From NCBI GenBank assembly GCA_047967505.1, contig CM106538.1: DNA of 64,000 nucleotides, one strand, 5' to 3'. This document shows, piece by piece, positions 28,058 to 58,787 of the stretch (positions are counted from its first letter, which is position 1; every line of letters begins with the position of its first letter). Source of the stretch: Dipteris shenzhenensis. Taxonomy: Eukaryota. The notes below the pieces were generated by a model that searched no databases, had not been told where the DNA came from, and worked only from the letters and a program-made list of their open reading frames with translations. The position numbers and the translations under genes were made by a program.

Positions 28058-30615
28058 ATGTTTTCGGGAGGCCTTATGGTGCCTATGGGAAAAAGTACAT
28101 CAAAAGAGAAAGAAACTCATACAAGCCTCTGTGGGCTGAAGCAAAGGGTGTGCTAGGGTCCTTGCTGAGTGCTATACTAAGCTAAAGAGCTCAAAAGCTC
28201 GAACTTGAAAATCAGAAACTCATAAGCTGAGAAATTGTGAGCTGAGACTGAGAACCCGAAGCCTGGTGCCATGGTGTCTCTCCCTTGGGCTGCAAAGATA
28301 TCCCGGATCTGCGTCTTTCGAGCTATCTCACGCTGTGGCGGCGGACGTGATCTCCTTGATATCTGCATCCGATGGGCTGTGTCAAGAGTGACACCTCATC
28401 TCTGGCAGTCTCCTCTAAGAAGAGCTGAGATAGACCGAGTCTGCTCTAGTCACTCGCCGTGTTCGTGTATGGCCTCTGCATGAAACCCAAACCGGATGAA
28501 ATCGCAAGTCAATTTGGCACCGTGGGATAGTTCACAATCAATGCGGGACTCTTTTGAAGCAAATCGCGGTACCCAGGGCAAGATGCCTGGTGCTGGAAAT
28601 TCCGTACATTCCTTGGGAAACGTGCTGAAATTGTAGAAATCAAATCGCCAACAAGATAGAGTGCTGGGGTAGAAGGGGTAAGGAGCAAAACACATCACTA
28701 GGGCCCAGAAAAGGGCTGGACCCCCCTAAAGGTCTTTATTGCAATAGAATAATCTTTGTACAACTGGCTCTTGAAAGAGCATAGAACTGAGTACAATTCT
28801 GAATACATTTGGGAGGCCTGGGGCCTTTTTTTTATAGACTTGGCCTAGCAAAAAGCTAGGGCCTGCTTTCTAAAAGCCAAGCTTTCAAGCGTTTCTTCCT
28901 AAATTGGAGGCTTTAGGCGTCTTTTTAGTCTTGTGGGCCCTCTTTTAAAAAGGTGCCTCGCTTATCCTTGCTTGAGAGCCTTGTGGGACCTGTTTTTTTT
29001 GTGCTTTTCTCCACAATCTTGGGTCCTTTTTGCATTCTCTTGGGTCCTACACATTGCACAAACAAATTCCAACACTTTAAACCAATAGAGGTTAGTGAAA
29101 TGCATACATTCCTAGTTCTTGGACTATTTCTAGTCCCTTGTGGGCATCCCCACAGTTCTCTTTTTACCAATGCAAGGCAAAAGTAAAAATAATAAAACTT
29201 ATTCCTGACTCACCAACTTCACTATTCTTTGACCGAAGTCAATTCTAATAAAGATTACTCTTTATTTTGTAGGAGAAGTCCCAAATGGTGACATCCCCTC
29301 GGCTGCTAAACAGTTGTCCTCAATTGAAAAGCTTCTTGATACAATTGTAGAACTTGAGGATACTTTGAGAAGAATTCCTCATCTACTTTCTTGGCATCAA
29401 GTGCTTGACAAGGTATCTACAGATAACCTTGCCTTTGGGTCCTTTCTTCTCTGTATGATTTACAATTTGTTCTGGTTGGAGGGTCTCCTCCATCTCTTCC
29501 ACCTCAGGTGGCTCTTCTTGAACTGGTTCTGTGGGTTCTGGTCCTTGATACTTCTTTAGAAGACTCACTTGAAAAGCACCAAGTCTCAGGTACTTGTCTG
29601 CTGCCTTCTTTTGCTTTTGTTAAGATCTTTCAATTGCTGTCCGAACTTGAGAGAAAGATGTATCTAAGTCTTGGACATACTGGTCAGCTGCAAATATCTC
29701 ATCCTTTGTTCTAAGGATAGGTGGTAGAATCACCTTTCCATAAATAGCTTCGAATGGGGATTTTCCTGTGGAGCTTTGAACAGTGTTATTGTATGCAAAT
29801 TCCACAAGAGGAAGATACTTTTCCCATGTGACCTTTTGCTCGGATGCATAACACTTGAGAAGATCCAATACCATGGAATTGGCATTCTCACCTTGTATGT
29901 CTGACTGAGGATGAAAAGTCCAGCTTCGTCCCCATATTATCAAATAATGCTCTCCAAAATAAACTAGTCATCCCGGGGTCTCGATCACTAACAATCAACT
30001 TCGGCATCCCATGGTACTTAAAGATCTGTGCCAAAAACAATCTAGCCATGTGGTCTGCCTTCATAGTTTTTCTTACTGGAATGAAATGGGCCTGCTTGCT
30101 GAACTTGTCAATGATGGTCCATATCCCATCATTCCCATATTTGGATCTAGGAAGATCAAAGATGAAAGCCATGGCGATCCTTTCCCATGGTCCTTGCGGT
30201 ATGGGCAGCGGCATGAGAAGTCCTGGGGTCTTTTGCCTATCATACTTTACCTTTTGGCACATAAGACATTCAGTTACAAACTTGTTAATGTCTTTCGGCA
30301 TCCCTAGCCAAAAGAAATCCCTCTCAATGGCCTGTGTAGTACATAGAATACCTCGATGCCCTGCATAAGGAGGAACATGACATTCTTCCAAGACTTTGGC
30401 TCGCATGTCTTGGGTCACACAAAGATGATCATTTTTCATGAGAAATCTGTCTTTCAGTGTATACTAGCTGAATGATACTCCCTATTGAATATTTCTCATG
30501 GTCTCTTCGAAATCTAGATCCTGTAAATAAAGCTCTTTCATAAGTCGTGGTGATATGCTATGCTGACATTATTCACTTTAGGCCCTGTAGATAAAGCATC
30601 CGCAACTCTGTTCCA
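28055..30615 (-). mobile_element. Chromovirus-like Ty3/gypsy 3' half: integrase, chromodomain remnant, PPT and ~1.24 kb 3' LTR
   Basis: NRVADALS (~30610), HVPPYAGHRG...CLMCQ, IDKFSKQAHF, IVSDRDP, LPLVEFAYNN, PEQIVNH...RYLVK. PPT/LTR junction GAGGGGA|TGTCACC at ~29293-29300. Confidence 0.85.
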
Positions 30616-31349: not shown

Positions 31350-34300
31350 AAGAGTGCAAGATGCAGCCCATGAAGGGCAGAATACTCAGGTTGATGCATT
31401 GGGGCAGCCAGCTCCACAAGTACATAATCCTGCTAGTACAGTTGCATTGGGTGCAGACCCAAGTGTACAGACAAATGCTATGGCCGTGATGCAAACTCAG
31501 ATGGCTTCTCTGTTGCAAGGTTTAACTCATCTCAAATAGAGCTTTGCTGAGAGTGTACATAATCCAGCTCTAATGCCGAGGGCAGAGGCACAGCGCATAC
31601 AGGATCCACAAATGCATGTGGGACAGCCACTACCAGAGCCGCAGACACCAGTGGTACAGCCACTTGCAGTGCCACAGAGGCAAGGACCACATGGGAATGA
31701 GCATGGTAGCAATGCTCAGAATGTGCAGCAAGGGGAGCCAGCTCAACCATAGCATGTGGTTCAGCCAACTCACTTAGGAGGAGGATCTATATTTCAGGCC
31801 ATGACCTCACAACCAGCCCCAAATTCTTTGTATGCTAATGTGGGGATACAGCCTGGAATACAGGGAGGTAGTCCCATGGTATCTCACACTCAAGCAATAC
31901 CACCTGTGCCACCAAATCTAGCTGTGAGGAGTGCTATACAAGCTCCAGAAGGACCCCAAGGGCAGCAGTCTCTTTATTTGCAACCCCTTGGCTATGATCA
32001 TCTGGAACCCAGGCTTAAGATGAAGGATTACAAGGAGGGGGGGGGGCAGCAGTGAAGTTTGAGACCTTCAATGAGCATGCAGATAGGATTAAGGATCTTA
32101 CCTTTTTGCAGCAATTTGACTTGGCTTTTGCTGGAGGTTACTTCAGAGAGTCTTCGAAAATCAATAAGGCAGCCACTTTTCTCAAAGGTAATGCAATGCA
32201 GTGGTGGTCTAGTCTACTTCTTCAGGGGCAGACACCTGCTACATGGGTTGATTTCAAGAAGGTATTCTCAGCCACATGGCTCACCACTACATTTGAAGTG
32301 GATGTCATGACTCAGTGGCATAACCTGAATGCTGGAATGCAAGAATTTAGAAGACTACCTTAAGAAGTTTTGGGATGCACTTCTGCCTATGAGCTCCTAC
32401 AGAACAATCCCCTTTTCAGAGCTGGTTGAAAAGTATTGTTGTGTCTTCCTAAAGAGTTGAGGGACTATTGCATAGACACATTTCCAGCATGTCACAGTTG
32501 ATAGAGAATGCAAACACAGATTACTTATGCATGGTAGAGTCTCAGACTTTAAAAGCAACTTTAAAGAGGAGCACAAGAAACCACAGCAAGCTGGAAAAGT
32601 ACCTTTCAAATCAAAGTTTGTGGCAGGCCAGAGAAGAAAACAGCAGCCCTCTTCCCTCACCTCCGAAGAGAGGAAGAAATTGTTTTCTGAAGGAAAGTGT
32701 TTCCTTTTCAAAGAGACTGGTCATAGGACAGCAGATTGTCCTAACAAGAAGAGAAAAGAACCTGCAGCAACTCGGGCTGAGTTTTAGAGGCAAGAAACCC
32801 AAGCCAAGTGCTGGCCACATTCTTGATATCATTGGGGGTGAGCATGATGAGAGATGTGCGGAGCATGGGGCAAGCTACGGGATCGGCATTGTTTGTACTT
32901 CTTTGATTCAGGGGCCAAAGCAAATTTTATAACTCCTGAACTTGCAGCTCAGTTCGGTCTTCGACCAGATCAGATCGACCCTCTTTGTGAGTCCAACATG
33001 GCTAATCCGGAGCCCAATACCCCTACACTCCTTTCATAGGGAAGCTACAAATTCACACTCAGGGATATGCTGAGGATGCACCTTGGATGTACCGTGTTCA
33101 TGCTATCATTGATACACATGATAAGAAGATTACCTTGACTTATAGGGTTAAAACCCGAGTCATAGATGTAAACATGAAGGGGAATCAGTCCCAGTTGTAT
33201 CCACTTTGGCAATATCTTCCGTAATGAAACAGCATCTTTTAGCGCATTTGATATTTGTAAAAGAAAAGGAACTAGTAGAGGATGAATCTAATTTCTCCAA
33301 GCTGAAAAAACGGCAAACTGAGTTTTTATTTTAGTTTCAAGATTGTTTCTCAAATGGACTCCCAGAGGAGTTACCTTCTGAAAGGCCAGAAGATCATATC
33401 ATTGATATCATTCCTAGTAGCTCTCCACCGAACCGACCACCATTCAGGGTTAGTGCGGTACAACTGGAGGAGATCATGTGTTAGGTGAATGAATTGCCAC
33501 AGAAGGGGCTGATTCAGCCAAGCTCTTCTCCATATTGCTCTCCCGTCCTACTAGTGCAAAAGAAGGATGGATCTTGGAGAATGTGTATTGACTACAGGTC
33601 TTTGAATAAGATCTCTATCAAGAATCGATTTCCCATCCCACGCATTGATGACATCTTGGATCGATTAGAGGGATCAGCCATCTTCAGTCGCATTGACTTG
33701 AAGAGTGGTTATCATCAGATACGAATTAGGCCCAAAGATGTACACAAGATTGCCTTTAGGACTACTTTTGGGTTTTATGAGTTTCTTGTCATGCCATTTG
33801 GTCCGACTAATGCTCTTGCTACCTTCAATCGCATGATGGACGCATTTTTCAGAGAGCACAAAGTTTGTGGTGGGAACACTCTTTGATGACATTATTGTGC
33901 ACTCGAAAGATGAAGAGGAGCATAGGCAATACTTGGCAGTTGTATTTGCAGAGCTCAGGAGACACAAGTTGTAGGTCAACACTAAAAAGAGTGAGTTCTT
34001 CATGCCAAAGATACATTTCCTAGGACACATCATCTCGCGGGATGGAGTAAGGATGGTACCTGCCAAGATAGAGGCAATCAAGAATTGGCCTCCATTGAAG
34101 AACCTACATGAAGTCCGTAGTTTTCTTAGCTTGTGTTCATATTACAGGCGCTTCATATGCCATTTTGCTGAGATAGCTTCACCTTTACATGCTTTACAGA
34201 AGAAGGCAGTGCCTTTCCGTTGGGTGAAAGAAAGAAATTGCAACATTCAATGAGATGAAGGAAAAGTCATGCTCTGATCCTGGTATCATTTTGCCAGACT

Positions 34301-35359: not shown

Positions 35360-37188
35360 GAGGTATTCTTGATTTGATACATATAGATGTATGGGGTTTT
35401 GCCCAAACCCACAATATCAATGGTTCACTTTACTGCTTGACTTTCATGGATGACTACAGTAGATATTCTTGGGTCTACTTTTTGAAAGAGAAATCTGAAG
35501 TGTTTCATATTTCAAGAATTCAAAGCCATGGTAGAAAATCAGACAAGCAAAAAGATCAAAGTCATGAGATCAGATAGAGGAGATGAATATGTCTTTAGCA
35601 TTCATGAACTTTTGCAGAAGTCACGGCATTCAAAGACAATTCACTTGTGCAAATACTCCTCAACAGAATGCAAGAGCTGAAAGGAAGAATGGTACTTTAG
35701 CATACAGTGCTAGAGCAATGCTTACTGAGAAGCATCTTTCGAATTAGTATTAGACAAAAGCAATAGTCCCGGCAAACTACTTGCTTAATTGGCTTCCTAC
35801 TGAACTAATACAGGGTATGACACCTTATGAAGCATTCACTAGATACAAGCTATGCATTAGGCATCTCCGCATATTTGGTTGCATAGCATATGCCCACATA
35901 CATAATGATCATCGCAGAAAATTGAATGCAAAGTCACGTAAATGCATCAAGGTGCATACAAGTTGTATGATTCCATTAACCGCAAGGTCATTATCTCCAG
36001 AGATGTAATCTTTGATGAGGAATCAGAATGAAAAAACTCAAATGCACAGAAGATAGACAATTTCACAGTCATCTATAGAAAAGGTTGATGAAGAAGAGCA
36101 AGAATTGTCAAAAGCACCCCAAGCAGATCCACATCAACTCAGACGGTTTACTAGGAAAAACAAACCTCCAGTCAAATTGACATATGCTCAAAAAGGCAAA
36201 GCAATTCAGGTTGAAACCACCAACTCTGCTCTTATGACTACCATCATGGCTATAGAAGAGCCAGTGTACTTCGAAGATGCAGTAGACAAGCCAAAATGAC
36301 AAACTACTATGAATGAAAAAATGGATGCTCTGTATAAGAATATTACTTGAAAATTATGTGACCTTCCACCAGGAAAGAAGGCCATAGCAAACAAATGGCT
36401 ATATAAAGTGAAGTATAATCTAGATAGAAGCATTCAAAGATTAAAGCCAGACTAGTTGCAAAAGGATTTGCATAGCAGTATGGTCAAGATTATGATGAGA
36501 CTTATGCTCCAGTAGGAAAGATGGATTCCATAGGGTTCTCGATATCACTAGCAACACTCAACAGATGGAATGTGTACTAGCTCGATGTCAAGAATGCATT
36601 TCTCAATGGTTACCCAGACGAGGAAGTTTACATGCAACAATCAGCAGATAATGTTGAACCAAGAAAGGAGAATCAAGTTTCCCATCTCAAGAAAAGTCTC
36701 TACAGCTTAAACAAGACACCTAGAAGTTGGTACAGCAGAATCAACCAGTATTTTGTTGATCTGGGATACATGAAATCCAATGCAAATCATACTCTCTACT
36801 ACAAAGTTCAAGGGGAAGACATTACTATTGCACTTTTGTACGTAGATGATTTGATTGTGACTCGAAGCAAGGATAGCTTCATTAAGAAATTGAAACAAGA
36901 CTTATATGCAGAGTTCGACATGAAAGATCTTGGACTTATACACTATTGTCTTGAAATTGAGTTCTGGAGAGATTCAAACAGCACCTTTATGAGTCAACTT
37001 AAACATGTTGAGTCTCCTGAAGAAGTTTCATATGGCAGATTGCAAGATTGCAGCCACTCCCATATAAGAGTTTGAAACTTACTAAAGATTCAGAAAATCC
37101 TACAATCAATGATATGTGTCCTCTCTCTCTAGCTGTGCCCTCTCTTCTCATCTCCACTCTTCTCCTCTCCCCTCTTCATATTTTGTCA
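35360..37188 (+). mobile_element. Second, deleted copy of the same copia family as 533-5100, in opposite orientation
   Basis: Closely matches the reverse complement of ~3310-1545 (INT-RT), then jumps directly into the last ~70 bp of the 3' LTR (rc of 533-600). Confidence 0.92.
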
Positions 37189-43700: not shown

Positions 43701-46164
43701 ATTAACCTAAGAAGAGGGATAGGATGGCAAAATTAATCTAAGGTGAGGTTCGATTGACATGACAGTGGCTTCACTCTACTAAAGTCTACCCTCGTAGGGT
43801 AGACCAAAAATAGAAAGTTCCTCTAAAGGAAAGTTGATGTATAGGAAAAACTCCTATAGGAAAGTTCCTGGATAGGAAAGTCCCTAGATAGGACAATTGC
43901 TATATAGGAAAAGCTCCTATATTGAAAACACCACTAACCACCCAACTAACCCTTGACCAATGAATAAAAATCCTTTATTGACGTCTACTATACTTGCCCT
44001 TGGCAGTAAATTGCCCTTGGTTACTATACTATACTTGCCCTTGGCAACAAATTGCACACCAGTGCTTCATGACGATTCTTATTGAGCAGCACGAGTGAAG
44101 AGAAATCTGATGATGCGAACACACTCAAGCAACAGATGCCACCAAAGGACATCCTCAAGCATCAGACGCCATTAAAGGAACATAGCAGGCCCAATGAAGT
44201 AAGCCACCGTGCCTCAGGAATGAAAGAAAGTTGTGCATAAGGTCAAAGTGTGCTAGGATGTGAGTCTAAGGGCATTGAATATGTGGTTGACTAGCATGAA
44301 AAGGTCCGACACCATGAAGACAGCTAGGAAAATTACAACACCATTTTGCAAAGAGGTCATGAGGAAAGAGGGTCAAATAGAACACATTCTAATGAATGAA
44401 TTGGAGATAAACACTACCACCAGCTACTGCAGCAGCAATATAGTAACGTGCAACGACTGGAGTAGTGCAATAAGGCCTTAACACAGCAGGTTGAGAAGTT
44501 CACCTAGCAAACAGTGGTTGAGATAGGCTCCTATGAGGACGTAATGGCCAATCCTCTAGTTCTCCAAACTATAGTGGACTATGTCAAGGAAGCGGTAAGG
44601 GTCTGTGCCAACGATCTTTTTAGCCACATGAAAAAGTATTCCAATGAATTCAAGCTCAGCCTTGTAATGGATCTGACATCGAGTCTGCTAAAAGTCTCTC
44701 TGCAATTGGAGCTATGCAAAAGCTTGTTATGGGTGTTTGAGAACCACCCGCGGATCCAAAGATAAAGGAGAACTAAATCCATGTGCTCAACCCTACCAAT
44801 TGTGCTAGCGCAGGAATCAATAGGCGATTGGAACTCGGTAATGGATTCCACAGCCTTCCTCAAAATGTCAGCTTGCAAAATTGATCGAGACGTCGTCTCT
44901 CTTTGCACCCTCTTCCTATCAATCACAGCTTCACTTCATGTTGATCCTATTGCATTGGTGTGTGAGAACTGATATGCAAATTATAGGAGGGCAACCTGGT
45001 GGGTTTTGAGAAGAAGGTGATGGCCAAGGGGAGTGGATTGGCACCAACAAGGGAGCAAGCGTACTCCCAGGCAAAAGGTGTATAAGAGGCATGCACTCAG
45101 GATATAAAAGAGCTTTCCCAACCCTATCGATGATCACCATTGCATAGTGTCTACAACAGTGAAAAGATACAAAGCTATTCTGAAGCCATGTTGAAAGCGT
45201 TTCCTTACAGTGGGATTTGCAAGACATGGTCAAGAATTCTATACTGTTGATTAGACAAGCAAAAAATGAATTGAAAGAATTCTCTCTTGACTATCAAACA
45301 TCATAGACTTAGTGATTTGGTTAGTCATAGTTGTTACACAAATAGATTTGTAGTTTTTTTTCAGTTTTTCGTTGAAGATTACACGTTGCACCTTGCACCA
45401 ATAAGCCCAAGTCTGGAAATTGAGTAGACTCTCTTGTGCACTCTACGCTCATGCTTCTTGCAATCACAGTGTAAACATTTATATAGTTTAGCTTTCCACT
45501 ATATCAAGGACCTAAAACAACTAAATCAAAGGCTTATACTAAATCAAGGGCCTAAAAAAGTGGTTAAATCAAGGGCCTAAATCAAGGGCTTACATTCATG
45601 ACCCGTGGCTCAAGGAGGTGTGAGAAACCCCAAACATCTCCCTAGGCTGCCTACCGCAACAAGTGAAAGAAATGAATGACTTTTGTCATTCATAAGGCCT
45701 GCCCAAAATGTAAACCAAACGAGGTAATGAATGGAGAGAGAGAGATGGAATGACAATAAAAAAACGGGGGCCTAAGTCTTGAATGTTCATTTCCAAACTT
45801 GTCTCAAAGCCATTAGTACACTTAACTCCCACTTGATGGTAGCCAATCAAAGCATCACACCTATTTTAGAAGCAAGTTAATCCTAAAAATTTTGAATTTC
45901 TACTTTACAAAATGAGAACGATTGCTAAGGCTACCTAGAGGGTAGACTAAAAAAGATTTTTAGCTTTTTTCAAGACAAACGGATCACGATACCCTACCCC
46001 CCTTAGCCAACAAGGTGGGGCTCCCACAAGGGCCCTACATGGCTTATTTTCTCTTGAGAATGATTGTCTTTGCCGAGGATTCAAGAAGTGTGACATGGGG
46101 AGGGCTGGCCCTTTTTTTCTAAGTGCGGTTAAGCATGTGGGCGATCACCTACTCGATGTATGCA

Positions 46165-46740
46165 CAAACAATATAGTGGTCTGTCTAGTACACGTGCGAT
46201 ATTTTTGTGTGTATTTGTGCTGATGGCAAGTCACTCCAAATGTGGTCCAAGTGTGAACCGTAGATAGTTGTGGGCTTATTTAGTTGTAGTTCGAGGCCTA
46301 AGGATTGCATGAGTCTTTCCAAGTTTGTTGATGTAGGTGATGCTTTGCTCATGTCTATTTGAAGTCTATTTTGTCCTATTGGTCATTATTATTTTTTAAA
46401 GATGAGTCAAGAACATGTTATATTTTTGAGATGGCAGCCTATATATATTGCAGATTTGGAAGTGCTGTCATGAATTGTTGTATTAATGGATGTTATTTCC
46501 ACTCCTTGGTCTATGTATGTCTCAACACTATGTATTGGCAAGTGCTTTCATACAAGTGTGCATTGTCCTGTGTGAGAAATTTTTTTGATTGCATTGATCC
46601 TTGTGGTGTGACTTGCTTTTGGTGTCTTGTTTTTGTTTCCTCAAGACAAATAATGCTTGAGTCCATTATTTTTTTTTGTTCCCTCAATGTCGAGGACGTA
46701 TTTTTCTAGTGTTCTTGTGTTTAGTGATGTTATTTTGACA
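46165..46740 (-). pseudogene. Apurinic/apyrimidinic (EEP-family) endonuclease domain directly after the helicase
   Basis: Manual translation across frameshifts gives KITSLNTRTLE...IMDSSIICLEETK...ICNIYRLP...DF(N)ID...NKPTTIYGSHLDHIWSD...Y*TDH, which are the EEP motifs in the expected order. Confidence 0.78.
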
Positions 46741-49700
46741 TTGCTGCTGCTGCTGGGAGTTCTCCATCGTTACCTAGGCTAGTGCTGAGTCTATGCATCT
46801 CATCTTGCACATGTGTGTCGACGTGGAAGTTTTCATTTTGAATTGGTTCCAATAGATACAATCTTTGAATCTCCTTGACTCGAGATAAAGACGTGTATGC
46901 TAGTCCGTGTCCTCGTACTCCCCTTGGTGAAAAAGCGAGTCTTTCCAATGTTAGCCCTTGGGCACGATGTATTGTCCTTGTTGCCGCCGCTAATTGTATA
47001 GGAATTTGTTCTCTAGTAAGGATGCTTGTTTTTTATGGCCCTACTTGTACCTTTTTCACGATTCTAAAGATAGGATTCCATTGTTTTGCGATGTGGTTTT
47101 CATAAGCATCGATGTTATTTTGGCATCCTCACAAGCCAATGTCTTTTGAAGGGAATAGTGTCCACACTATATCCCTCTCGATAGATGTCAAAGTTGTCAT
47201 GAAAACTCCATCGATGCCGTTCACCAAGCCATCTTGCTGGTCAATGTTTTGTGAGCAAAGTTCTACTAGCATTCCTTCTTTTATCTCGATTTTGGTATGC
47301 GGGCCACGTGTTTCTTGGATCATATAGTGTTTTTGTTCTGTTGCATGTTGCATGTGAGAAGTGATCCCTTGCAAGAAGTACGTGCTTTTGCCCGTGCAAA
47401 GCCGCATCATTGTGTTGTGTTTTCTTGTTTGCAAGTTTGTGTATAGGTGGGGGAATGTGTGGTCTAGCGGTATTGGGTGCAAGCATGTTTTGTTCATGTT
47501 ATCCAAGTCTTCGATTGTGTGGATGCATTTCTTGAATGAGTTGAGCGTGTTTATGAATGCATCATTGCTTTGGCGCATGATAGATTGTAGCTCAAAGAAT
47601 TTGGGTTTTGTTTGCCAATATGTCTCCGCAAGACATTCTAGCTCTCTTAAGGCTATTTTGAAGACCCACGAATCTTTCACTGGCTTGGCCTAGTAGAAGT
47701 CTCCACACGTAATGATGTCTACAACTCCAAAGAAGTGTGTGTGATCTCTTTTCAAAATTCTCAAATCAAAAAAATTAATTGTTCTTTTCTCGACCAACGA
47801 GATTTCATAAAAAACAAAAAGTTGAACTTGCGAATATAGGGTTGTCAATGTGTCCAACCTCTCCCTTGGAAAAGATGTTAAGTTGTTTGTGTGTGTAGGA
47901 AGATGCAAGGCAGAGTGAATCGTGTTATCATTAATATTGCACGATGCTTTTCTGGTGTAGGCTAGCAAGAGGGTTGTGGGCAGGTTGTAGTCAACATGCT
48001 CCAAAGTCTTGTGGTAATGTCCAAGCAAGCCTTGCACTATTAGGAGTTAAAAACAAGTGTATTTTTTCTTGTGGATCCAAATGCTTTCGCAACATGACAT
48101 TATCAAATAGCTCGTGCTGCTCCTTAGTAAATGATCTTATCTTCTAAAAGTACTTGGTGTTGTACATGAGAAGCTACTCTTTGGCGGTGACCATAAATTG
48201 GTCACTCTTAATGACTTTTGATACTGCAGGCATGTCTAGTGATATATCGTACAAGTTCTCATTTTGGGGTTCGTTGTCAAAATATGGGCTTCTACTATTT
48301 TCGTGGTCGCATGCGATGTTGGTCGAAGGACTTTCTATGTCGTTATTGTCATAGTACTGATAGTTGTATTTCTCTTTGTTCATGCGTATTATATCTTCTC
48401 TTGCATAATAGGCTTTGGCCCCTCATTGTTCCTCCTCATCCTCTCTAAAGGGGCAGTACAAAAGAAGCTGCTCGCGGTAGGTGATTGTTAGGGTTTTTAA
48501 ATTTGTTGAGCTTGACAAAGCTCAAGATTTTTTGTTTCTTTCTTTTCTTGGAAGTATTGTTATTATGATTGTATTCGGTAGTGAATGTCGCCAGACATAT
48601 GTCGTCCATGAGCTGTTGGTCAATGTATTTGTCAATGATGCTCCGACAAGAAATGTCAGTGGAGTCATTGTCAAGTGCTTGCAGTTTGTCTTTACATTTC
48701 AGAATGAATGCTCTTTTCTCCTTCACGTTTGTGTTAATGAATTGGAAGTCTCTGCTACATCTGTGCAAAGGAAGTGACAAAGTGATGAATGCTGCGAGTT
48801 GTTCGCTCATTTGCTGAGCATGTAAAAAAGCATTTCCCATTTTCCTTAATCTCTCTTGCATGGGGTTGTTCTCTTGCAAGCACGTCGTCAATGTGTCACG
48901 CATTGATTATGTGAGCGTGCTATCCATTTTTGTGATTAGGAAGTGCAGTATAATCCAGCAGCATATGGGTCCATGATGAATTATATGTCCATATTAGATT
49001 GCTAGAGGAAGCTAACCTTCTTGTTGAAAGCATTCGTGAAGATGTCCTTTGGTTCATGTTTTAGGAATACTGTTGGTTTCGATATTAAAGCCCTTAATGA
49101 TAGGATGTATGCTTGTATGTCTATTTGTAGAGTGTCCAACCACTGGGGTAACTTAACATCCTCCATTGTTTTGATTCTTTGAATTCCTTGTCGAATTCAA
49201 ATGCAGACTTCTTTGAATTTATCCCTTTCCCCACCCTCAAGTGGAGCCAATATCATTGTTGCATGCAATGGGGGCTTGGGATAGTGGAATCTGCAAACTT
49301 TGTGTTGACCCTTTGTGCATGTCTTTGTATGCCTGTGAGTCTGTATTTCAGTCATTTTTTCACCTAGCAGCTTCTTGTCACACGCGATGTGCTCGTCTAT
49401 GAGGGCTATCACCTCAACATCACTGTCAACATTGTATTGCGGTGCTTATTCGACCCACAAAATCCCATGCTCGTACTGGCTACCTCTACTTTGGAACTTT
49501 GTGACAAAGAAGTAATCAGCTACATTGCCTATTATTGAGTCGTCCTTGTGCAGTAGGTGGACCATATTTTGTAATTTGTGTGTATAATATCAGGTGCATC
49601 ATGACAAGTTTTGCCTAATGAGCCGCATGATGCTTGGTTCGTGGAGCATTGTATTGTGTGGTGGAGTCCCTATGCTATACTTTGTTTTGAGAGCACTCAC

Positions 49701-50881
49701 TAAAGGTTCCCACATCCGTTCGGTGCATGAGAAAGTAACAAAGAAACATGGTGGCCCCAATTGACGCATCATTGCAAATGCTTCTTTGCGTAGTCTTTCC
49801 TTGTGGTCGGGCGAGGTGCGATGGTTCTCAAAGTCCCTATATCCTATCCCTGATTTCATTATCTACTCAATGTTGGTATTATTTTTTTCATCCCTCGCAC
49901 ATAGCAATTTATTTTTTAGCATTCTTTTTCTTAAGTGTACCCATATGGATTGCAACACTTGATGTATTAAAACCTTTATAGCTTTAAAAAAAAGATTTGT
50001 AATATTATGAGCAAATTTCAATGACTTGTGCATTATTTCCCATTTTACTTTGTCTAAATATGTTAGCTTGTGATTGCAAACCATTCTAGGGAAGCCACAA
50101 TATAGTGACGAGAAATTCAACTCCTCGCTATGCTCATCTTTGGAAACACCTAACGGTTTTTTATTCTCTGAAGGTGGCACATAAATCGCCTATGTTTCAA
50201 AATCTATGACTTCCTCTATGCTAACTAAGTTGTGTATCAACGTGTCGATTTCTATCTTGTCCTCTTCCATTAGGCGCTCCTCGACATCATTTAGTATGCA
50301 CACGCCAGGCAAAGGCATATTTAGTGATGTATTCAATGGAGTGAAAAATTTAGGGATGATGTTCCTTTTTATTGTGTTGTTGCACTCATGACAAATTTTG
50401 TAGTGCTTTTCTATAAATCCAATGTTCGGATCTTCTCTTTTTTCTTTTACCCCCTCAAATGTTGCATTGCTAATGTACATGCTTTGTTTCCTGAAAAACA
50501 TTCTTTTGCATGAAAAACAATCATGTAATGAACTTGGCGGAGGTGATGTTTCTATCAATAGAAATTCTTTCCTTTTTTTTTTTTGAGTAGGCACTGGTAT
50601 AAAGGAAGTTTTTTGGTTGGAAGTTTTTGCCTCTTTGCTGCTTCCACCAGTTATCTCTTCGCGGGTACATTTTATTTTTAGAATCTTGCTTCTGATAATT
50701 GATGTTGAAATGTTGTAAGAGGGAAAACTTTGTTGCATGTGCTCTTTAATGTTGGTGCTTTTTGTTTCTCTTTCTTCAAGCACGATGCTTTGCAAGCATT
50801 CTTCCATGCTTGTAGACCATTGCCTTTGTTTGTTAGCGTGTTGAGAATAACTTTACATGGACAAATGGTCATAGTCGATTC

Positions 50882-51352
50882 CTAAGTCAACATCTGCATG
50901 GTTAAGGTTTTGTGATTCCAGTTGCGACACTCGTAGACTTTGTGGAACTGGTCGGTGCTTTCAAGAAATAGCTCTAATTTGAATGCATATGTTTTGGCTA
51001 ATGTGGGTAATGCAAATGAGTCGAATGGGTTGAGTGTGAACCCTTCGTGTTGCACACAATGAAGATACCCTTCAAAATCTGCAACTCTTGGATACAAACT
51101 CTCGAACAATGCATCGTTGAAACCATTCTTCCATTCAATGAAGCTTTGTTTCTTCCCTTCTATCAACCCCTTCACTTCTTTGCACATGCAAGCTTTTAAA
51201 GAGTGAGTGGATATGTGAAAATGAAGGAGATATGATACACACAATAGAACACACTTGTTGTTTGGGTATCTCTCCATCGTGAATTCGACGTCGAGAGATC
51301 TATAAGTGTCAATGGATGTACTTTCCATACCTTTGATTGGGCAACAACGCAA
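50882..51352 (-). pseudogene. OTU-like cysteine protease domain upstream of Rep
   Basis: NNKCVLLCVSYLL...HSLK...FEGYL...EG...ALPTLAKTYAFKLELF resembles the OTU pattern (DGNCxFxAxS...FxxYL...ALAxxYxxxIxVF). The position fits Helentron architecture. Confidence 0.5.
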
Positions 51353-53112
51353 TGAGAATATTGTAATCTACTCGAACACACTAAGACTCAAATCAAACTT
51401 TGATGAAAGATAGGAGATTACATTATGATCCTCGTATTGTGAAAAGACAAAACTCCATAGAAGTCTTTAGTACTAAGCAAACCATTTGTACAAAGTACTT
51501 TGCGAGCACATCTCTTACTACATTAAGAGAAGTAGACTTTTGGTTAAGGCAGCAACGTCTCTTACTACATTTAGAGAAGTAGACTTTTGGTTAAGGTAGC
51601 AACATGCCTCACTTCACATCCTCGACAGTGGGGGCAATAAAACCGGTAACACAACCAAAGTTGTTTGTAAGGAAACGGCCTTCCACTTTCTTGCTGAATA
51701 GGTAGGACTTCAACAACGATGTGTTTCCATGAAGCAACTCTGCAAAAGGTCAGAGAAGCCTTAAAACCTTGTCAACAATTGCATCCTTCAAAGTGACATC
51801 GATTAGTGCTCCTTCAGCTGTTGTTATGAGGGCCTTTATTTTGGGTATTTTAATAAGAGAGGATGTTTTGTTGTAAGACAAGCAAAAGACATTGTCTCCC
51901 CATCTCTTAATATTTTATTTCCCTTGTATATGGTCCTTCACTGGTCTTAGGTGTAAAATCACTTGTAGAAAATCTCAATTGTACACGGGGGAAGTAAGCA
52001 ACTAGAACTGGTTGCTATATCCAATGTGCTAGATGTGTGCACTAAAGACGTGCGAGAGATAGGCTACAAAAGGCGATGGGTCTTTGATGGACACAATTAT
52101 AGTAATGTCAAGGATATTTAAGACCTTGCATCCAACATTGTGCAATATGAACTTTGCCTCTCCAAAAACTTTGAATTTCTCTGAAGTGTTAACAAAGTTG
52201 GAGCGTCGATTGCTCCAGAAGGTGAGCTGTTGATATGTGTTCAAAAGTGTAGCATAAAAGTTTTAGACTTGTGCCATAAAAGTGGAGATAGTGGCAGACA
52301 ACAAATATGAGAGATGTAGCGGCTCATTCAAATTAAGTCTTACTCATGTCTTACTGTTATGAGATCCTTGAGTAGGTCACCATCTCCCACGATCAGCTCA
52401 TCACGTTGCTTGTACGAAGCCCCCAATTTTATGATGGTGACGGCAAGAGTTGCAAAAGGAAGCTGGTTTCCCTCACCCTTATTTACTAGATTCCTACACC
52501 CCTCTTTGTATTGGCTAATGGTTCCCTAGGGATAAATTCTGGCACCACAACAAAAGGTTCTATCCTTTCGACTCTAGTTAGAGCAGGCACATTGACGTTG
52601 TCAACATAGGGTGGGTACTCTTCTTTTACCTCTACCAGTTTTGTTTTTCTTTAATCAGAAGAATCTATTTCATCTAGCTTTCTTTTTGGGCAAGGTTTTG
52701 TAGCCACGGTTGTTTTCACAATAGGTGGTGGAGAGGAACTTAAAAGGGAAGCAACACCACCTACAAGGGAAGGATTGACAACATGTACACTCAAAGAAGA
52801 GATATTGGTTGGAAGGATATTGTCTCTCTTTGATTGAGGATGCACAACATCTGTTTCAACAAACTCAAACGTGTCAGAGTTGACATTGATATGTCTTCGT
52901 CGTTTTTCTTTATTGAAGTGGGATGACAACTCTTTGCATTTTTACAACTACTGCCACAAATCTTTATTCACTCTAAAATGAACAGAGAATTGCAAGATTA
53001 GAGATTTTGATTTCACTCAAATTGAAAGGGGCCAAACATATATATACAAATATATTAATACAGGGAAAATTAGACTCTATCGCTATAATGTTTTAATATA
53101 TACTTTTTCTTC

Positions 53113-53450
53113 TATGATGTAGTTATCTTCTCTTTAAATCCATTTGGGAACACTATAGCAATTGATACCATTTTTCTTAGCAATCCACAACACTTTTTTC
53201 GATCTTTTAGTTTGATTAAGAAAAACGAAATGTGGGGGGAGAAGTATCCTATATGCCATCTAAACCTTTACAAACTCAATACAATGATGGAGTTATTTTC
53301 TCTTTAAATTCATTTGGAAATATTGCAGCAATTGATAGCATTCTTTTAGCAATTCATAAAACTTTTGTTTCATCTTTTAGTCTGATTAGCGGAAGCGGGA
53401 TGTGGGGGGGTATATATCCTATATGCCATTCAAACCTTCACAAACTTAGA
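53113..53450 (+). repeat. Tandem duplication of ~170 bp
   Basis: ATGATG-AGTTAT-TTCTCTTTAAAT...GCAATTGATA...TGTGGGGGG...TATCCTATATGCCAT...ACAAACT occurs twice. Confidence 0.8.
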
Positions 53451-54694
53451 GACATAGTCACACACAATGCAATGAAGCAAGCAAAATATATACAACAAAA
53501 CATGTTGCAAGGCCAGTAAACATGAAGCGTGACTAACTGTCAAGCCACACTTACATCCTAGGGCCATCAAACTTGTAGCGCCACTAACTATCAAACCACA
53601 CTTATATCCTTCTAAGGACCAACACTGTCAACAAACCAACAGCATGAAAACCAAACTATACCGCTCAAATCCCTACCATCGAATAGCCTATTGTAGACAG
53701 CAAGTCTAGCACCATCAAACCCTCATCAAACCCACAATTCAGCTGTTGTATTAGTCATGCAAGAAGGCTAATGCTGCAACTAAGGACCTGCCAAATTAGA
53801 CTGTTGCACGCATCCAATCACCCGGATGTGCCAAGCACTCAAGTCTTGTCTAGTCAACATCTTCTTAAACGCAATCGAGCAGCCTAACATACACAACAAA
53901 CCATCGAACCCCCATGACACACGCGCAAGCATGCAGATTAGTCACAAAGAACAACACCTGAATGTCCACACACCAAACACTCGTCCTCCTAACATGAATC
54001 ATACACGACTATCACCACACCTAGAAACAACGCAACCCCAAAAATCAAGCCCAAACACTGAATTATAGAGCTTGTGCAGCAGCAACCTCCCTCACAAGCA
54101 AAGATAGCGTCCCCTCCCATGCGCAACACTTGCATGTACTACAAACTATATCGACCAAGCATCCGCATATACCACGCGTGCAACAGACTACCATATACAT
54201 GAAACCAATGGAAACTCCAAAAGAAACACTCAAAGGTCAACTATGACCTTCTGAGTTAGCCATCTCTGTATCAAAATCTTTGCAGCAAGAGTCAGACAAT
54301 GCATATACAACCATCGCAATCTTGTAGCCAAAGAATCGATGCAGCGACGTATTTATACATGCAAACATGCTTTTTCTAAATCGTGTCAGAGCACAGAGCG
54401 ATTTGCCTGACACGATTACCCCCATGCATCTATCTCTGATTGTTTGAAGAGGTGCAAGCCAAGAATGGCTTGCCCTGTTCAAGAAGCAGCCCTATTTTGC
54501 TACAAAACAACACACGAGATGGACGTCCATCCCCACCGAAGTATTCTCCACCATCGCCATGCTGTGCCCGCCAGGTAACAGTGAAGAAAAGCCTCTTGCA
54601 ACATGCCACAAGTTGCCAAAGAGCCCTCGCCCATGACAAGCATCAGAGCCCTCAAACCACCAGAACCCGCCAGAGAAGCCTAAAGAAAACCCAC

Positions 54695-54800
54695 GCAGAA
54701 GCCCATGACTAGCGCCAGAGAGCCCATGACCCACGCAAAAGAACCTACCAGAGAAGCCCATGACCCGCGCCAGAGAGCCCATGACCCGCACAGAAGAACC
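54695..54800 (+). repeat. Short tandem array of AGCCCATGAC-containing units upstream of the CCCH gene
   Basis: At least four AGCCCATGAC units with ~20-30 bp spacing, plus one GCCCATGAC at ~54630. Confidence 0.7.
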
Positions 54801-55177
54801 CGCGGTCGCCAATGAGACGAAGCAGAGCCGCCACACTCTTGGAGGCATTCACTACAAAAGAACAAAATAGGCACCCTAATTTCAAGAGTCCCATGGCCAT
54901 TTTGAAACGCTTATGACTTGTCATCCCTCGCTGTTAAAGACGGGCTCCGCGTGGAAGAATTGTAGCCAGTGGTTTGTTGCACTTTCGAGGCCGACGGAGA
55001 AAGCCGGAAAGGGCACAGGACTCGGGAGAGCGGGATTAAGAGCGAGAAGGTCTCCCAAAGAGGAGAGCGTGTTCACGGGAGCGTGAAGGATCCCAGATTC
55101 TGAGACGCACAGAGCGAGAGAGAGCGTCACAGACAGGGAGACGTTTCTTTTTATGGTTCAGTAGACAGCCCCGAGAA

Positions 55178-55228
<51 letters not shown>

Positions 55229-55266
55229 GGGGGCAGAGTCTGAGAGACTTTGGGTGTGTGTGTGTG

Positions 55267-55314
<48 letters not shown>

Positions 55315-55322
55315 CACCCCAA

Positions 55323-58300
55323 ATGGATTCGGCCGCAAGGCGTGGTGCTGGTAGCGCTGGAGGCGGATGCTCGGCTGATGGTATCATCCCTTGGGACGGA
55401 GTCTCGCCCGCGCACGACTACAGAGAGCACGCTTACCAGCCCCAGCGGGTTTCACGATCTTCGAGATGGAGTGATGGCCCCCCAGGGCAAGGGTCTACTC
55501 AAGAGGGAAACCCCCCCCCTGCTGGGCTGGAACCACCCTTCAAGAGAGTGAGGAACAATTCACAGGAAACTGTAGATCACAGGGACGATACAGGTCCTGC
55601 ATATAGATTTGATTCTGGTTCTGGGGAAGGCCCGCCGGGTCTTAGCTATGGTCGATCCGGATCTGCTACAGCAGGGGATATGCCGAGCGAAACTGGCCAA
55701 GGCTACGGAGGTTTAGGTGGTCAGATCTATGGCACAGGCTATGGTTCGCAGCAGATGCCATCTTATGGGGTAAACTATGCATCGCAGCAGAGCGCACCTA
55801 TGAGTTTTGCGCCTGGGTCTGCTAAGGGTGCAACAGGAGCTCTATTTTACAAGACAAAGCTGTGCACTAAGTTCAAGTCTGGTTCCTGCACTTTCAATGA
55901 ACGATGCAATTTCGCTCATGGCGTAGAGGAGCTTCGAAAACCTCCTTCTGGATGGCAGGACATGGTTGCAACGGGAGGTTCAGCGGGTGAAAGGCCTGGA
56001 GGTTATAGTACTGGACGAGGCTTTGATGCACAACCACGAAGGACTAAGCTCTGCCGGTATTTTATGGAAGGTAACTGTCCCTATGGGGAGCGATGCAATT
56101 TCCTGCATGGTAATGAGGAGGATCAGAAGATTCCAGGAATGGAGCCTCCCAACGCTTTTGCTTTCAGGGGTGGCATGAGGGGGCCTCCTGTTGCAAAAGC
56201 CAACTACAAGACTCGCCTTTGTGCAAAGTGGGAGAAAGGGGAACCTTGCGACTTCGGGGACAAATGCCACTTTGCGCATGGGCCTGAGGGTACTCTCTTG
56301 TTGGCTAATGGCTGTAAAGTCGCTTTGATGTCTGATTTTCCTTTTCCCAGGTTTTGTAGGATCAAATTTCCACGTGAAATACAAAGAACGTTGTCGTTAG
56401 TATCTATGAATCGGTGGTGGTTTTGTTTTCGGAGAACAATTTTTTATGATTGGGCGTGGTTATGTTTTTAGCTAATTTTTAACAACTGATCAGCAATGCT
56501 GGTATATTTCTGTTTCACGTAACTAAATTTCAGTGGAGGGAAATTTTTTGTTATCACTTGCCACGTATTTGAGTATTGCTTGTTTTAATTCTCCAATTCC
56601 TGAGGCTAGAGGGGAGTTATTTAGTAGTGGGCGTTATACTTGAGATGATTAAATGTATTGAAATTTTTTGAAAGACGATATAAGGAATTGTTCTTAAACT
56701 AAGGTGCAGCCCAATGGTCAGTCCCGTCTTATGACTGCAGATGTTTAAGTGTCTTTTCAGGTTCCCCCTCTACTATATCATAATTGGATTGAACTAGGTG
56801 CACTATGGATGTTATCTTTGAGGGCTTAATCTGGACCCCGAGGTCTTGGTTAATAATCAGGTCGCTCTATTTATCCTGTGGGTTTGAAGTAGGAAGTTAA
56901 CCTTTTCTATAGGCAACTGAAGTGTAGTCACCTTGGTAACAATGAAATTTTAAACTAATGTATTGCCTTCTTTTAGGTCTTCTTGAAATGCAGTAATTAC
57001 TGTTGTGTCCTTGACAACCTACGTAGGCTTAAATATTTGTGGAATGTTAAGCTTCTCGACTTTGCCAGTTTTCTCCAAGTGCTCTTGCTACAAATTAGAG
57101 TTTCTATGGGTTGAAATTATTTGAAAAATAGTAAATACTGTTGTAGCCTTGACAACTTAGGGAGGCTTAATACTTGTGGAATGTTAAGGTCAAATTGTGG
57201 GTTTTCTCCCCCCAATCGAACTTTTTATGAAATAAAGTAATTACAGCTATATGCTGACTGTCTGTTTTCAATAAGGAAAAAATTTCGCCTGGATTTAAGT
57301 ACTGTTTTATAAATAGCATTACCGTCTGTAATATTAATTAATTAAAGTACTTACAGCTATATGCTGACTGTCTGTTTGTAATAAGGAGAAATTTCCGCCT
57401 GGACTTAAGTACTGTTCTGTAAATAACATCACCGCTGTGCCTAGGATGATATTTGTAAACCATGAATGAATTTTGTTAAAGTTTGTCAGCTGTGCAGATC
57501 TTCCACTTTCTGTTGAGCATGAATTGTTGTTTCCAATTAGTAGAAGTAGTAATGCACTTTCGAATAGTAGTTTGTTGACAGTAGAAAAGCATGAACTTAA
57601 AAGTGTTAAAGTCATACTTTGTGCTTCTCTTAAAGGTTGTTTTATATTAATTGTTTTAAATAATTTAAATCTCTTCCCCTTAGTTCTGTAATCTCATTTT
57701 GACCTTTGTATAGTCACAGTATGCTTCTTTTTGGGATAGTAACTCGTTTTTGCAATTGATGCCTGCATTATGAATTTTGGATTGCTTTAAAGTTGTGATA
57801 TTGCAGGGCATTGTATATTACGTGCTCAATTCTAGTCAATATTCATTGTAATACAGGGTTTTGCACCGGTGAAAATGGGTTTGGTATTGATGATTATTTC
57901 TATCTGCTCCTGTAGATCTTTAACTCTGATTCTCATAGAGTAATACATCCTCAAGGTTCCACAACTGCATGGTCACAATTCTTCTTGCAGTTGGGATGTT
58001 TTTATTGTTCATTCCTGCTTTAACTCTATAAAACTGCATGTTTTATGCATTTCTTGTGAACTTCGTCGTCTCTCATTTTGTTGATTAAATGTGTGGCTCT
58101 GCAGAGCTGCAAAGATACTCTGGAGTTTCTACCTATCCAAATGGCGGCACTATGACTACGGATGTACAATATCCAGGTGTCAAGTCAGAGATGCCTGCTT
58201 CCCAGATTTATGCTGATCCAAGCATGATGAATCCCCCTCCTTTAGCTGCTCCCTATGGGGCTCCAGCTGATGCAGGTGGTGCTGGTCATATAGCTGCATC

Positions 58301-58787
58301 AAATGTAGACCCATATTCAGCTGCAGGAACAGCTTATGCAAGTTCGCAAGATGGTACTAATGGTTCCTCTGCAAATTACAACTACTGGGATATGGGTGCA
58401 GGTGCTGCTCAAAAACAGCCAAGTGTGTCTACTCAGGGCTATGTGCAGGCTAACCAAACAGTGCCATGGATGGCTGATTATTCTGTTGACGGAGGATATT
58501 ATAGAAGCGGGAATGACACAGCTGTTTCCCAGTATCCTGTACAGGCGCCTCCGCAGCAGCAAAATGTTCCCTTTTACACAGGTGGAAGTGCTCATGACTA
58601 CCAGGATCTGAAGCCGAACACGAATACACCCTATGTGCAGGATGACAGCCAGAGTAAATACCAGGGTGAAGCAAGGAATGGGGATGGCTATTATCATAGT
58701 GCATATACCGAGGCTAACTATTCCAGCCAGCAGCCAGATTACAGTGCCAGATATAATATGGCAGAACCTTGGGGGGGACCTATGTAA
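55323..58787 (+). CDS. Tandem CCCH (3x C-x8-C-x5-C-x3-H) zinc-finger RNA-binding protein; exons 55323-56289 and 58105-58787, 549 aa
   Basis: FYKTKLCTKFKSGSCTFNERCNFAHG, TKLCRYFMEGNCPYGERCNFLHG, YKTRLCAKWEKGEPCDFGDKCHFAHG. A phase-1 GT..AG intron (56290-58104) yields HFAHGPEELQRY, the expected post-finger motif. Total 1650 nt in frame. Confidence 0.88.
57234..57434 (+). repeat. Intronic tandem duplication (~110 bp period)
   Basis: AAAGTA-TTACAGCTATATGCTGACTGTCTGTTT...CGCCTGGA-TTAAGTACTGTT occurs twice. Confidence 0.85.

Follow-up and report, generated by a model that had tools for sequence, protein, structure and literature searches.

A decayed Helentron-type transposon with a fused endonuclease remnant in a chromosome of Dipteris shenzhenensis

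In this study, we analysed a stretch of 64,000 nucleotides from Dipteris shenzhenensis (contig CM106538.1 of the NCBI GenBank assembly GCA_047967505.1; hereafter, the window), and found that it contains, between ordinary plant genes, a decayed and non-functional rolling-circle transposon of the Helentron type with an endonuclease. The element lies on the minus strand, from about 50525 to 46150, between a gene for a PPR-DYW protein and a gene for a CCCH zinc-finger protein. It is composed, in this order, of a zinc finger with the start of a DUF6570 domain, a Rep domain (Helitron_like_N), a PIF1-like helicase, and a frameshifted remnant of an AP endonuclease (EEP). Very probably, it is a single, old and inactivated copy of an autonomous Helentron, that is, of an endonuclease-encoding member of the group HLE2 of the Helitron-like elements (HLE), residing in a land-plant chromosome. 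A preliminary description of the window, made from the letters of the sequence, had placed such an element at 46160..52930, and every motif quoted there was found in stop-to-stop frames of the region 51367-46185. The features considered here are as follows:

50268..50525, minus strand: zinc finger of the CxxC..CxxC type, followed by ~30 residues from the start of DUF6570 and ending with LNDVEERL (custom profile)
48939..50288, minus strand: Rep (HUH endonuclease) domain in a single frame with in-frame stops, with the Pfam core at 49461-49910 (Helitron_like_N, tblastn)
49467..49499, minus strand: Rep motif 2, KFQSRGSQYEH, with the Helentron 'RGS' signature (alignment to P0006)
48366..48969, minus strand: interval linking Rep to the helicase, read in two further frames (48969-48445 followed by 48479-48366; tblastn with P0006)
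46781..48046, minus strand: PIF1-like superfamily-1 helicase in a single frame with in-frame stops (PIF1, phmmer, alignment to P0162)
46150..46769, minus strand: remnant of an AP endonuclease (EEP), continuing the helicase at its C-terminus and split into four pieces, with frames 2, 1, 0 and 2 (Helentron-EEP profile)
50885..51367, minus strand: upstream open frame of 161 codons, the candidate OTU-like domain of the preliminary description (open frame only)

Before the comparison with Pfam, the frames were read through with X at the stops, which gave one read-through for Rep (50852-49002, P0001) and one for the helicase (48046-46511, P0002). The Rep read-through matched Helitron_like_N with an E-value of 9.1e-16 (59 bits, curated cut-off 28.9), and single pieces of the Rep open reading frame (ORF) were matched by the same model with E-values of 2.7e-09 and 0.0013. 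In tblastn, P0007 covered the stretch 50288-48939, to which P0006 was 32% identical over 318 residues, with six stops inside. The helicase read-through matched PIF1 with an E-value of 4.4e-11 (43.2 bits, cut-off 25.9) and Pif1_2B_dom with an E-value of 0.012; for a single ORF piece the PIF1 match had an E-value of 6.4e-08. By tblastn, the helicase was collinear with full-length relatives, downstream of Rep and on the same strand, and a phmmer search with its read-through among 1.84 billion representatives gave 7005 matches at E<=0.001, the best of them at 2.2e-68. The presence of Rep and PIF1 domains on one strand, as proposed earlier, was thus borne out. A search of PDB sequences with the Rep read-through returned only a chance match, to arfaptin (E 0.53).

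The Rep motif 2 was read in the preliminary description as KFQSRGSQYEH, and we located exactly this sequence at 49499-49467, in the frame 49589-49446. It aligned with IEFQQRGSPHVH of P0006, so that RGSQYEH of the window stood opposite RGSPHVH. Helentrons have been described as carrying S between G and P of this motif, in the place of the L of Helitrons (Thomas et al. 2014, PMC4067079). Relative to SPHxH, the SQYEH of the window has the first catalytic histidine replaced by tyrosine and the proline by glutamine. A second Helentron signature (F/Y-x-R before motif 2) reads FFV in the window, which is not a clean match. Further downstream, residues 320-459 of P0006 corresponded to 48969-48553 (tblastn E 3e-17) and residues 519-559 to 48479-48366, and the tyrosine motif of Rep fell at the frame change near 48950-48990.

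Upstream of Rep, the sequences CFSC...CHEC and LNDVEERL were located in the frame 50852-50190. A profile built from the finger/DUF6570 region of 35 relatives matched this piece with an E-value of 3e-09, the match covering positions 16-102 of the 207 in the profile and residues 110-195 of the piece (50525-50268), while the next-best piece of the window reached only 1.8, and the finger together with LNDVEERL, noted in the preliminary description, is therefore recognized by its counterpart in the relatives. Both CxxC pairs were included in the match, but of DUF6570 only the initial ~30 positions, the remaining ~100 being gone. Since only ~55 codons separate LNDVEERL from the expected start of Rep, compared with 130-290 residues in the relatives, an internal deletion in the upstream part is indicated. 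Among the six Rep relatives with names or domains, three had an EEP domain and one of these also an OTU domain.

The endonuclease remnant was probed with a profile derived from the EEP domains at the C-terminus of 16 relatives, run unfiltered on the 3528 six-frame stop-to-stop pieces of the window. The four top matches were four collinear pieces located directly after the helicase, and the fifth-best match in the window had an E-value of 5.3. The four pieces are:

46769-46644, minus strand: piece with SLNTR, profile positions 3-26, E 0.083
46705-46514, minus strand: piece with IICLEET, profile positions 23-50, E 0.0085
46467-46399, minus strand: piece with IYRLP, profile positions 110-131, E 0.067
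46382-46188, minus strand: piece with PTTIYGSHLDHIW, profile positions 152-206, E 4e-10

The TDH motif followed one stop beyond the last piece. Of the 156 relatives compared by tblastn, 36 aligned to 46364-46134 with their C-terminus, always with the extreme end of the protein (best E 1.6e-08). P0162, a protein of 677 residues with PIF1 and Exo_endo_phos domains, was 41% identical to the window over 486 residues, and its alignment started in the helicase and passed the junction unbroken to reach the EEP domain, with ILCLIETR of P0162 opposite IICLEETK of the window. The phmmer stretches of several other relatives also extended beyond residue 470 of the query into EEP. A GDFN-type motif was not recognizable, and the GDFN stretch fell in a gap of 18 residues of the P0162 alignment. 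The four collinear top matches and the continuous alignment of P0162 support the earlier suggestion that a frameshifted AP-endonuclease remnant directly follows the helicase.

The copy is dead and incapable of rolling-circle transposition, because it contains at least 16 in-frame stops (eight up to 48939, one in the interval between Rep and helicase, six in the helicase and the junction, and one before TDH) and seven frame changes (segments starting at 50852, 48969, 48479, 48046, 46769, 46705, 46467 and 46382, in frames 2, 0, 2, 1, 2, 1, 0 and 2, respectively), its HUH motif reads SQYEH, and most of DUF6570 as well as the GDFN-type motif are gone. The helicase motif APTGKAA reads AYTRKAS, and no reading frame of more than 220 codons is intact. 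In the intact form, the element would have encoded one large protein with a zinc finger/DUF6570 part, an HUH Rep nuclease, a Pif1-like 5'-3' helicase and a C-terminal AP-type endonuclease, which, going by what is established for Helitron-like elements, would move the element by rolling-circle transposition. Rep would nick one strand and bind that strand through a tyrosine, the helicase would peel the nicked strand off, and the single strand would be re-inserted, typically at TT; as a guess, the endonuclease might aid in nicking the target.

The assignment to the Helentrons and to HLE2, proposed in the preliminary description, was upheld by the fused EEP domain, by the RGS motif and by HLE2 markers in the nearest relatives. 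Among the best 41 helicase representatives, examined for domains at E<=1e-05, Exo_endo_phos or Exo_endo_phos_2 was found in 19, DUF6570 in 10, OTU in three and Herpes_teg_N in two. In 22 further long relatives (chosen by length, ranks 44-142 of 150), DUF6570 was present in all 22, EEP in 14, OTU in one and Herpes_teg_N in three, so that EEP was detected in 33 of the 63 helicase relatives scanned. According to Li et al. (2024, PMC11417382), endonuclease (EN) and Herpes_teg_N domains are almost exclusive to HLE2 and DUF6570 is specific to the HLE2 clade; EN is enriched in subgroup b of HLE2, the Helentrons, whose hosts are a mixture of fishes, molluscs, cnidarians and land plants.

The window copy shares with the Helentrons of subgroup b the order Rep, Pif1-like helicase and fused C-terminal AP endonuclease, the zinc finger/DUF6570 upstream, and the RGS of motif 2. 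It differs in that it is dead and internally truncated, with no subterminal inverted repeats or 3' stem-loop detected, and its assignment to the subgroup is by features and not by the authors' references. With the canonical plant Helitrons (HLE1) it has in common a rolling-circle Rep and a Pif1-like helicase that match Helitron_like_N and PIF1; however, those elements have L in motif 2 (RGLPHxH) and no endonuclease, whereas the window has S and a fused EEP. HelenSM92 of Sphagnum magellanicum is likewise a land-plant HLE2, documented with terminal repeats and TT sites, but it was described with a captured GIY-YIG domain and not with EEP, and we set it apart from our copy by this description only (Li et al. 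2024, PMC11417382).

The preliminary description regarded such elements as little documented in vascular plants, and this view is out of date. Earlier reviews, as quoted by Li et al. (PMC11417382), had HLE2 as seemingly absent from land plants. By means of HELIANO, the same authors reported HLE2 in six of eight sampled land-plant classes (13 of 74 species) and found conifers to have thousands of copies. The supplement of PMC11417382 lists 3367 HLE2 for Taxus chinensis, 111638 for Sequoiadendron giganteum, 223 for Diphasiastrum complanatum, 442 for Allium cepa, 17 for Polytrichum commune and one for Physcomitrium patens; the one fern sampled in that study had no HLE. In the portions of PMC11417382 available to us, no explicit statement was found that plant members of subgroup b carry EN. 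The protein of Taxus chinensis described below shows at least one plant member with a predicted EN domain. The kind of element is therefore one already reported in land plants, and the window copy is a newly identified dead member of it.

The closest named relative of the window copy was the hypothetical protein KI387_017721 of Taxus chinensis (P0021), a partial sequence of 409 amino acids with an Exo_endo_phos domain, which was 49% identical to the helicase query over one third of its length. Over a common segment of 231 residues, the identity to the window was 44% for P0162, 43% for P0012 and 40% for the Taxus protein, with some short fragments reaching 49%; outside the closest group it was at most 36%, and for the protein of Mytilus edulis 28%. 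We computed a FastTree phylogeny (LG+gamma) of 123 C-terminal helicase segments, i.e. the window and 122 relatives with at least 150 of the 231 residues, shorter rows being left out. The window was placed with a support of 1.0 in a clade of nine tips, together with the Taxus protein, P0162, P0012, P0163, P0042, P0049, P0067 and P0121, and of these P0162 and P0012 bear EEP. The Taxus protein, P0162, P0012 and P0163 resemble the window copy in the architecture of a helicase C-terminus followed by EEP, in 40-49% identity and in the common clade; they are open predicted proteins or fragments without Rep or the N-terminal part, whereas the window copy is full of stops.

Because the sub-lineage of the copy includes the Taxus chinensis protein, a plant-resident lineage is likely to be the better explanation of its origin than a recent arrival from animals. 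As to the choice between ancient retention and horizontal transfer, the sole pointer is the gymnosperm origin of the closest named relative. A more far-reaching proposal is that the window copy, the Taxus protein and the rest of the nine-tip clade form a distinct, anciently plant-resident branch of EN-bearing Helentrons, which would have been inherited vertically from the time of the last ancestor shared by the host and conifers, or from earlier, with an N-terminal module of its own (50885-51367) that might be a cysteine protease of very divergent sequence, and which would have kept Rep, helicase and EN independently of animals. We consider this proposal tentative and, on balance, doubtful.

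We regard it as unlikely that the element entered this plant lineage fairly recently, by horizontal transfer with an animal or another non-plant organism as donor, and then decayed. Horizontal transfer is well known among Helitron-like elements, subgroup b has mixed hosts as described above (PMC11417382), and the full-length named relatives include a mussel protein. However, the mussel protein was only 26-28% identical to the window, whereas the well-supported closest group, at 40-49% identity, contains the Taxus protein. Moreover, the heavy decay points to an old insertion, and a plant-resident pool of HLE2 exists, as conifers have thousands of copies and a lycophyte has hundreds (PMC11417382).

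A canonical plant Helitron (HLE1) adjoining, or hit by, an unrelated long interspersed nuclear element (LINE), with an endonuclease fragment that mimics a fusion, is very improbable and already largely refuted. EEP domains are typical of non-LTR retrotransposons, the window is rich in retroelement debris, and the pieces are missed by the general EEP models of Pfam, which leaves the domain weakly defined. However, the EEP is not a separate LINE insertion, since it continues the helicase exactly as it does in the related Rep-Hel-EEP proteins, for which the unbroken alignment of P0162 was decisive. The four pieces lie on the same strand, starting no more than ~12 bases from the last helicase residues, and it is the Helentron-EEP profile, not the general models, that they match (E 4e-10). 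There was also no reverse-transcriptase signal after EEP: ORFs in 44257-46223 had no Pfam domain at E<=0.1 except three at chance level (E 0.03-0.07). Finally, the S of Rep motif 2 is not the L of Helitrons.

A co-option of the remnant by the host, for instance as a source of small RNA or as a regulatory element near the CCCH gene, has a similarly small chance of being correct. No supporting point was found for it; the remnant lies ~4 kb from the CCCH gene, which starts near 55100, but it has no long intact frame, as given above, and a scan of the window for Rfam families was empty. That the Helentron stretch is a contaminant or was joined to plant sequence by misassembly is the least probable explanation of all, as its sole point is that land plants were for a long time believed to lack Helentrons, whereas plant genes and plant-type retroelements flank the stretch on both sides within the same 64 kb, the G+C content of 46-52 kb (0.38-0.41) is like that of the surroundings, the closest named relative is a gymnosperm protein, and an independent survey found HLE2 in many plant assemblies (PMC11417382).

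Several observations speak against our interpretation of the copy as an inactivated, EN-bearing Helentron of a plant-resident lineage. The longest exact inverted match between the flanks was 12 bp, a length reached by 45 of 200 shuffles, and a scan for inverted repeats gave 263 pairs, none of them outstanding. For a 3' stem-loop, the 281 bases after the ORF (46160-45880, DNA fold) folded no better than shuffles (z 0.14). Self-blastn revealed no second copy within the window, so that no TT target site could be read. The Pfam model Exo_endo_phos was not detected on single pieces or on the X-read-throughs, the Pfam model DUF6570 had no match at E 10 in the pieces of the window, and the calls of EEP and of the finger depend on profiles built from relatives and not on Pfam models. 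EEP was absent at E<=1e-05 from 22 of the best 41 helicase representatives, many of these being fragments. The placement in HLE2 is based on one motif and on the domains that the nearest relatives carry, and not on a tree with named HLE1 and HLE2 references, and the term 'plant-resident' depends on one named protein in the nine-tip clade.

Short tandem repeats were found on either side of the coding remnant, at 45539-45589 (a 13-bp unit in four copies) and at 51511-51603 (a 47-bp unit in two copies with 95% identity), and they are not tied to the element. Internal repeats are a known feature of Helentron derivatives (PMC4067079).

Concerning the extent of the element, the part of the originally claimed span at ~46150-50525 was confirmed, while the part at 51368-52930 was not, as nothing links this DNA to the element: it had no similarity to the 156 relatives (tblastn, E<=1) and no Pfam domain. 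Just past the upper boundary proposed earlier, at 53114-53446, there is an A+T-rich tandem of two 170-bp units (80% identity, G+C 0.29), for which we saw no link to the element. The region at 53500-54900, which separates the element from the CCCH gene, is strongly skewed (GC skew down to -0.45, AT skew up to +0.5) and contains tandem units of 51-55 bp.

The OTU-like domain suggested in the preliminary description for the open frame at 50885-51367 received no support from Pfam, custom profiles, hhalign or a predicted fold. This frame had no Pfam match up to E 10, OTU included, and profiles of five Helentron OTU and five Herpes_teg_N domains did not match it. With hhalign, the probabilities were 0.2-0.5% (0.2% for OTU), and tblastn of the relatives gave nothing better than E 0.77. 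A single-sequence AlphaFold2 model was unusable, with a mean confidence (pLDDT) of 30.7. The A-rich skew of the coding strand of the element begins at ~46100 and fades near 50950. Heavy decay could hide a genuine OTU domain in this frame.

The land-plant setting recognized in the preliminary description holds, as the window contains a PPR-DYW gene as well as copia and gypsy elements. The former is an intron-less PPR frame of 913 codons at 23365-26103 (plus strand), with an E motif and a DYW deaminase domain that covers the profile only up to position 67 of 93, so that a truncated gene or a pseudogene may be present. Its relatives were all from land plants, none with more than 52% identity, and the commonest were from Diphasiastrum complanatum, Ginkgo (Gb_ identifiers) and Cryptomeria japonica, which agrees with a land-plant host that is probably not an angiosperm. 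Decayed pieces of Ty1/copia elements were found at 1090-4442 (minus strand; RVT_2 over two frames and an integrase core) and at 36581-37072 (plus strand; a second RVT_2 fragment). Fragments of Ty3/gypsy elements, with integrase core, Integrase_H2C2, Retrotrans_gag and RVT_1 domains, were present at 19030-19947 (plus), 29620-30463 (minus) and 32019-33883 (plus). The CCCH zinc-finger gene at 55104-56468 (plus strand) had three zf-CCCH matches, and its leading part includes a (GA)n run (55180-55311). Further on, at 58089-58784 (plus strand), there is another long open frame without a Pfam domain, possibly a later exon of this gene. Long microsatellites of the CT/GA type at 10388-10812 (plus) and 16291-16845 (minus), which read SLSLSL or ERERER, are of low complexity and are not genes. 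A scan of the window for tRNA genes returned nothing.

With regard to annotation, plant repeat pipelines tuned to Helitrons can overlook Helentron relics of this kind; they can also annotate the endonuclease wrongly as part of a LINE and take the helicase for a PIF1 gene of the host. Since a publication of 2024 already reported HLE2 from land plants, the copy opens no fresh question. It adds one data point on EN-bearing HLE2 in land-plant chromosomes, from a sub-lineage that is shared with a conifer, and bears on whether these elements were inherited or imported.

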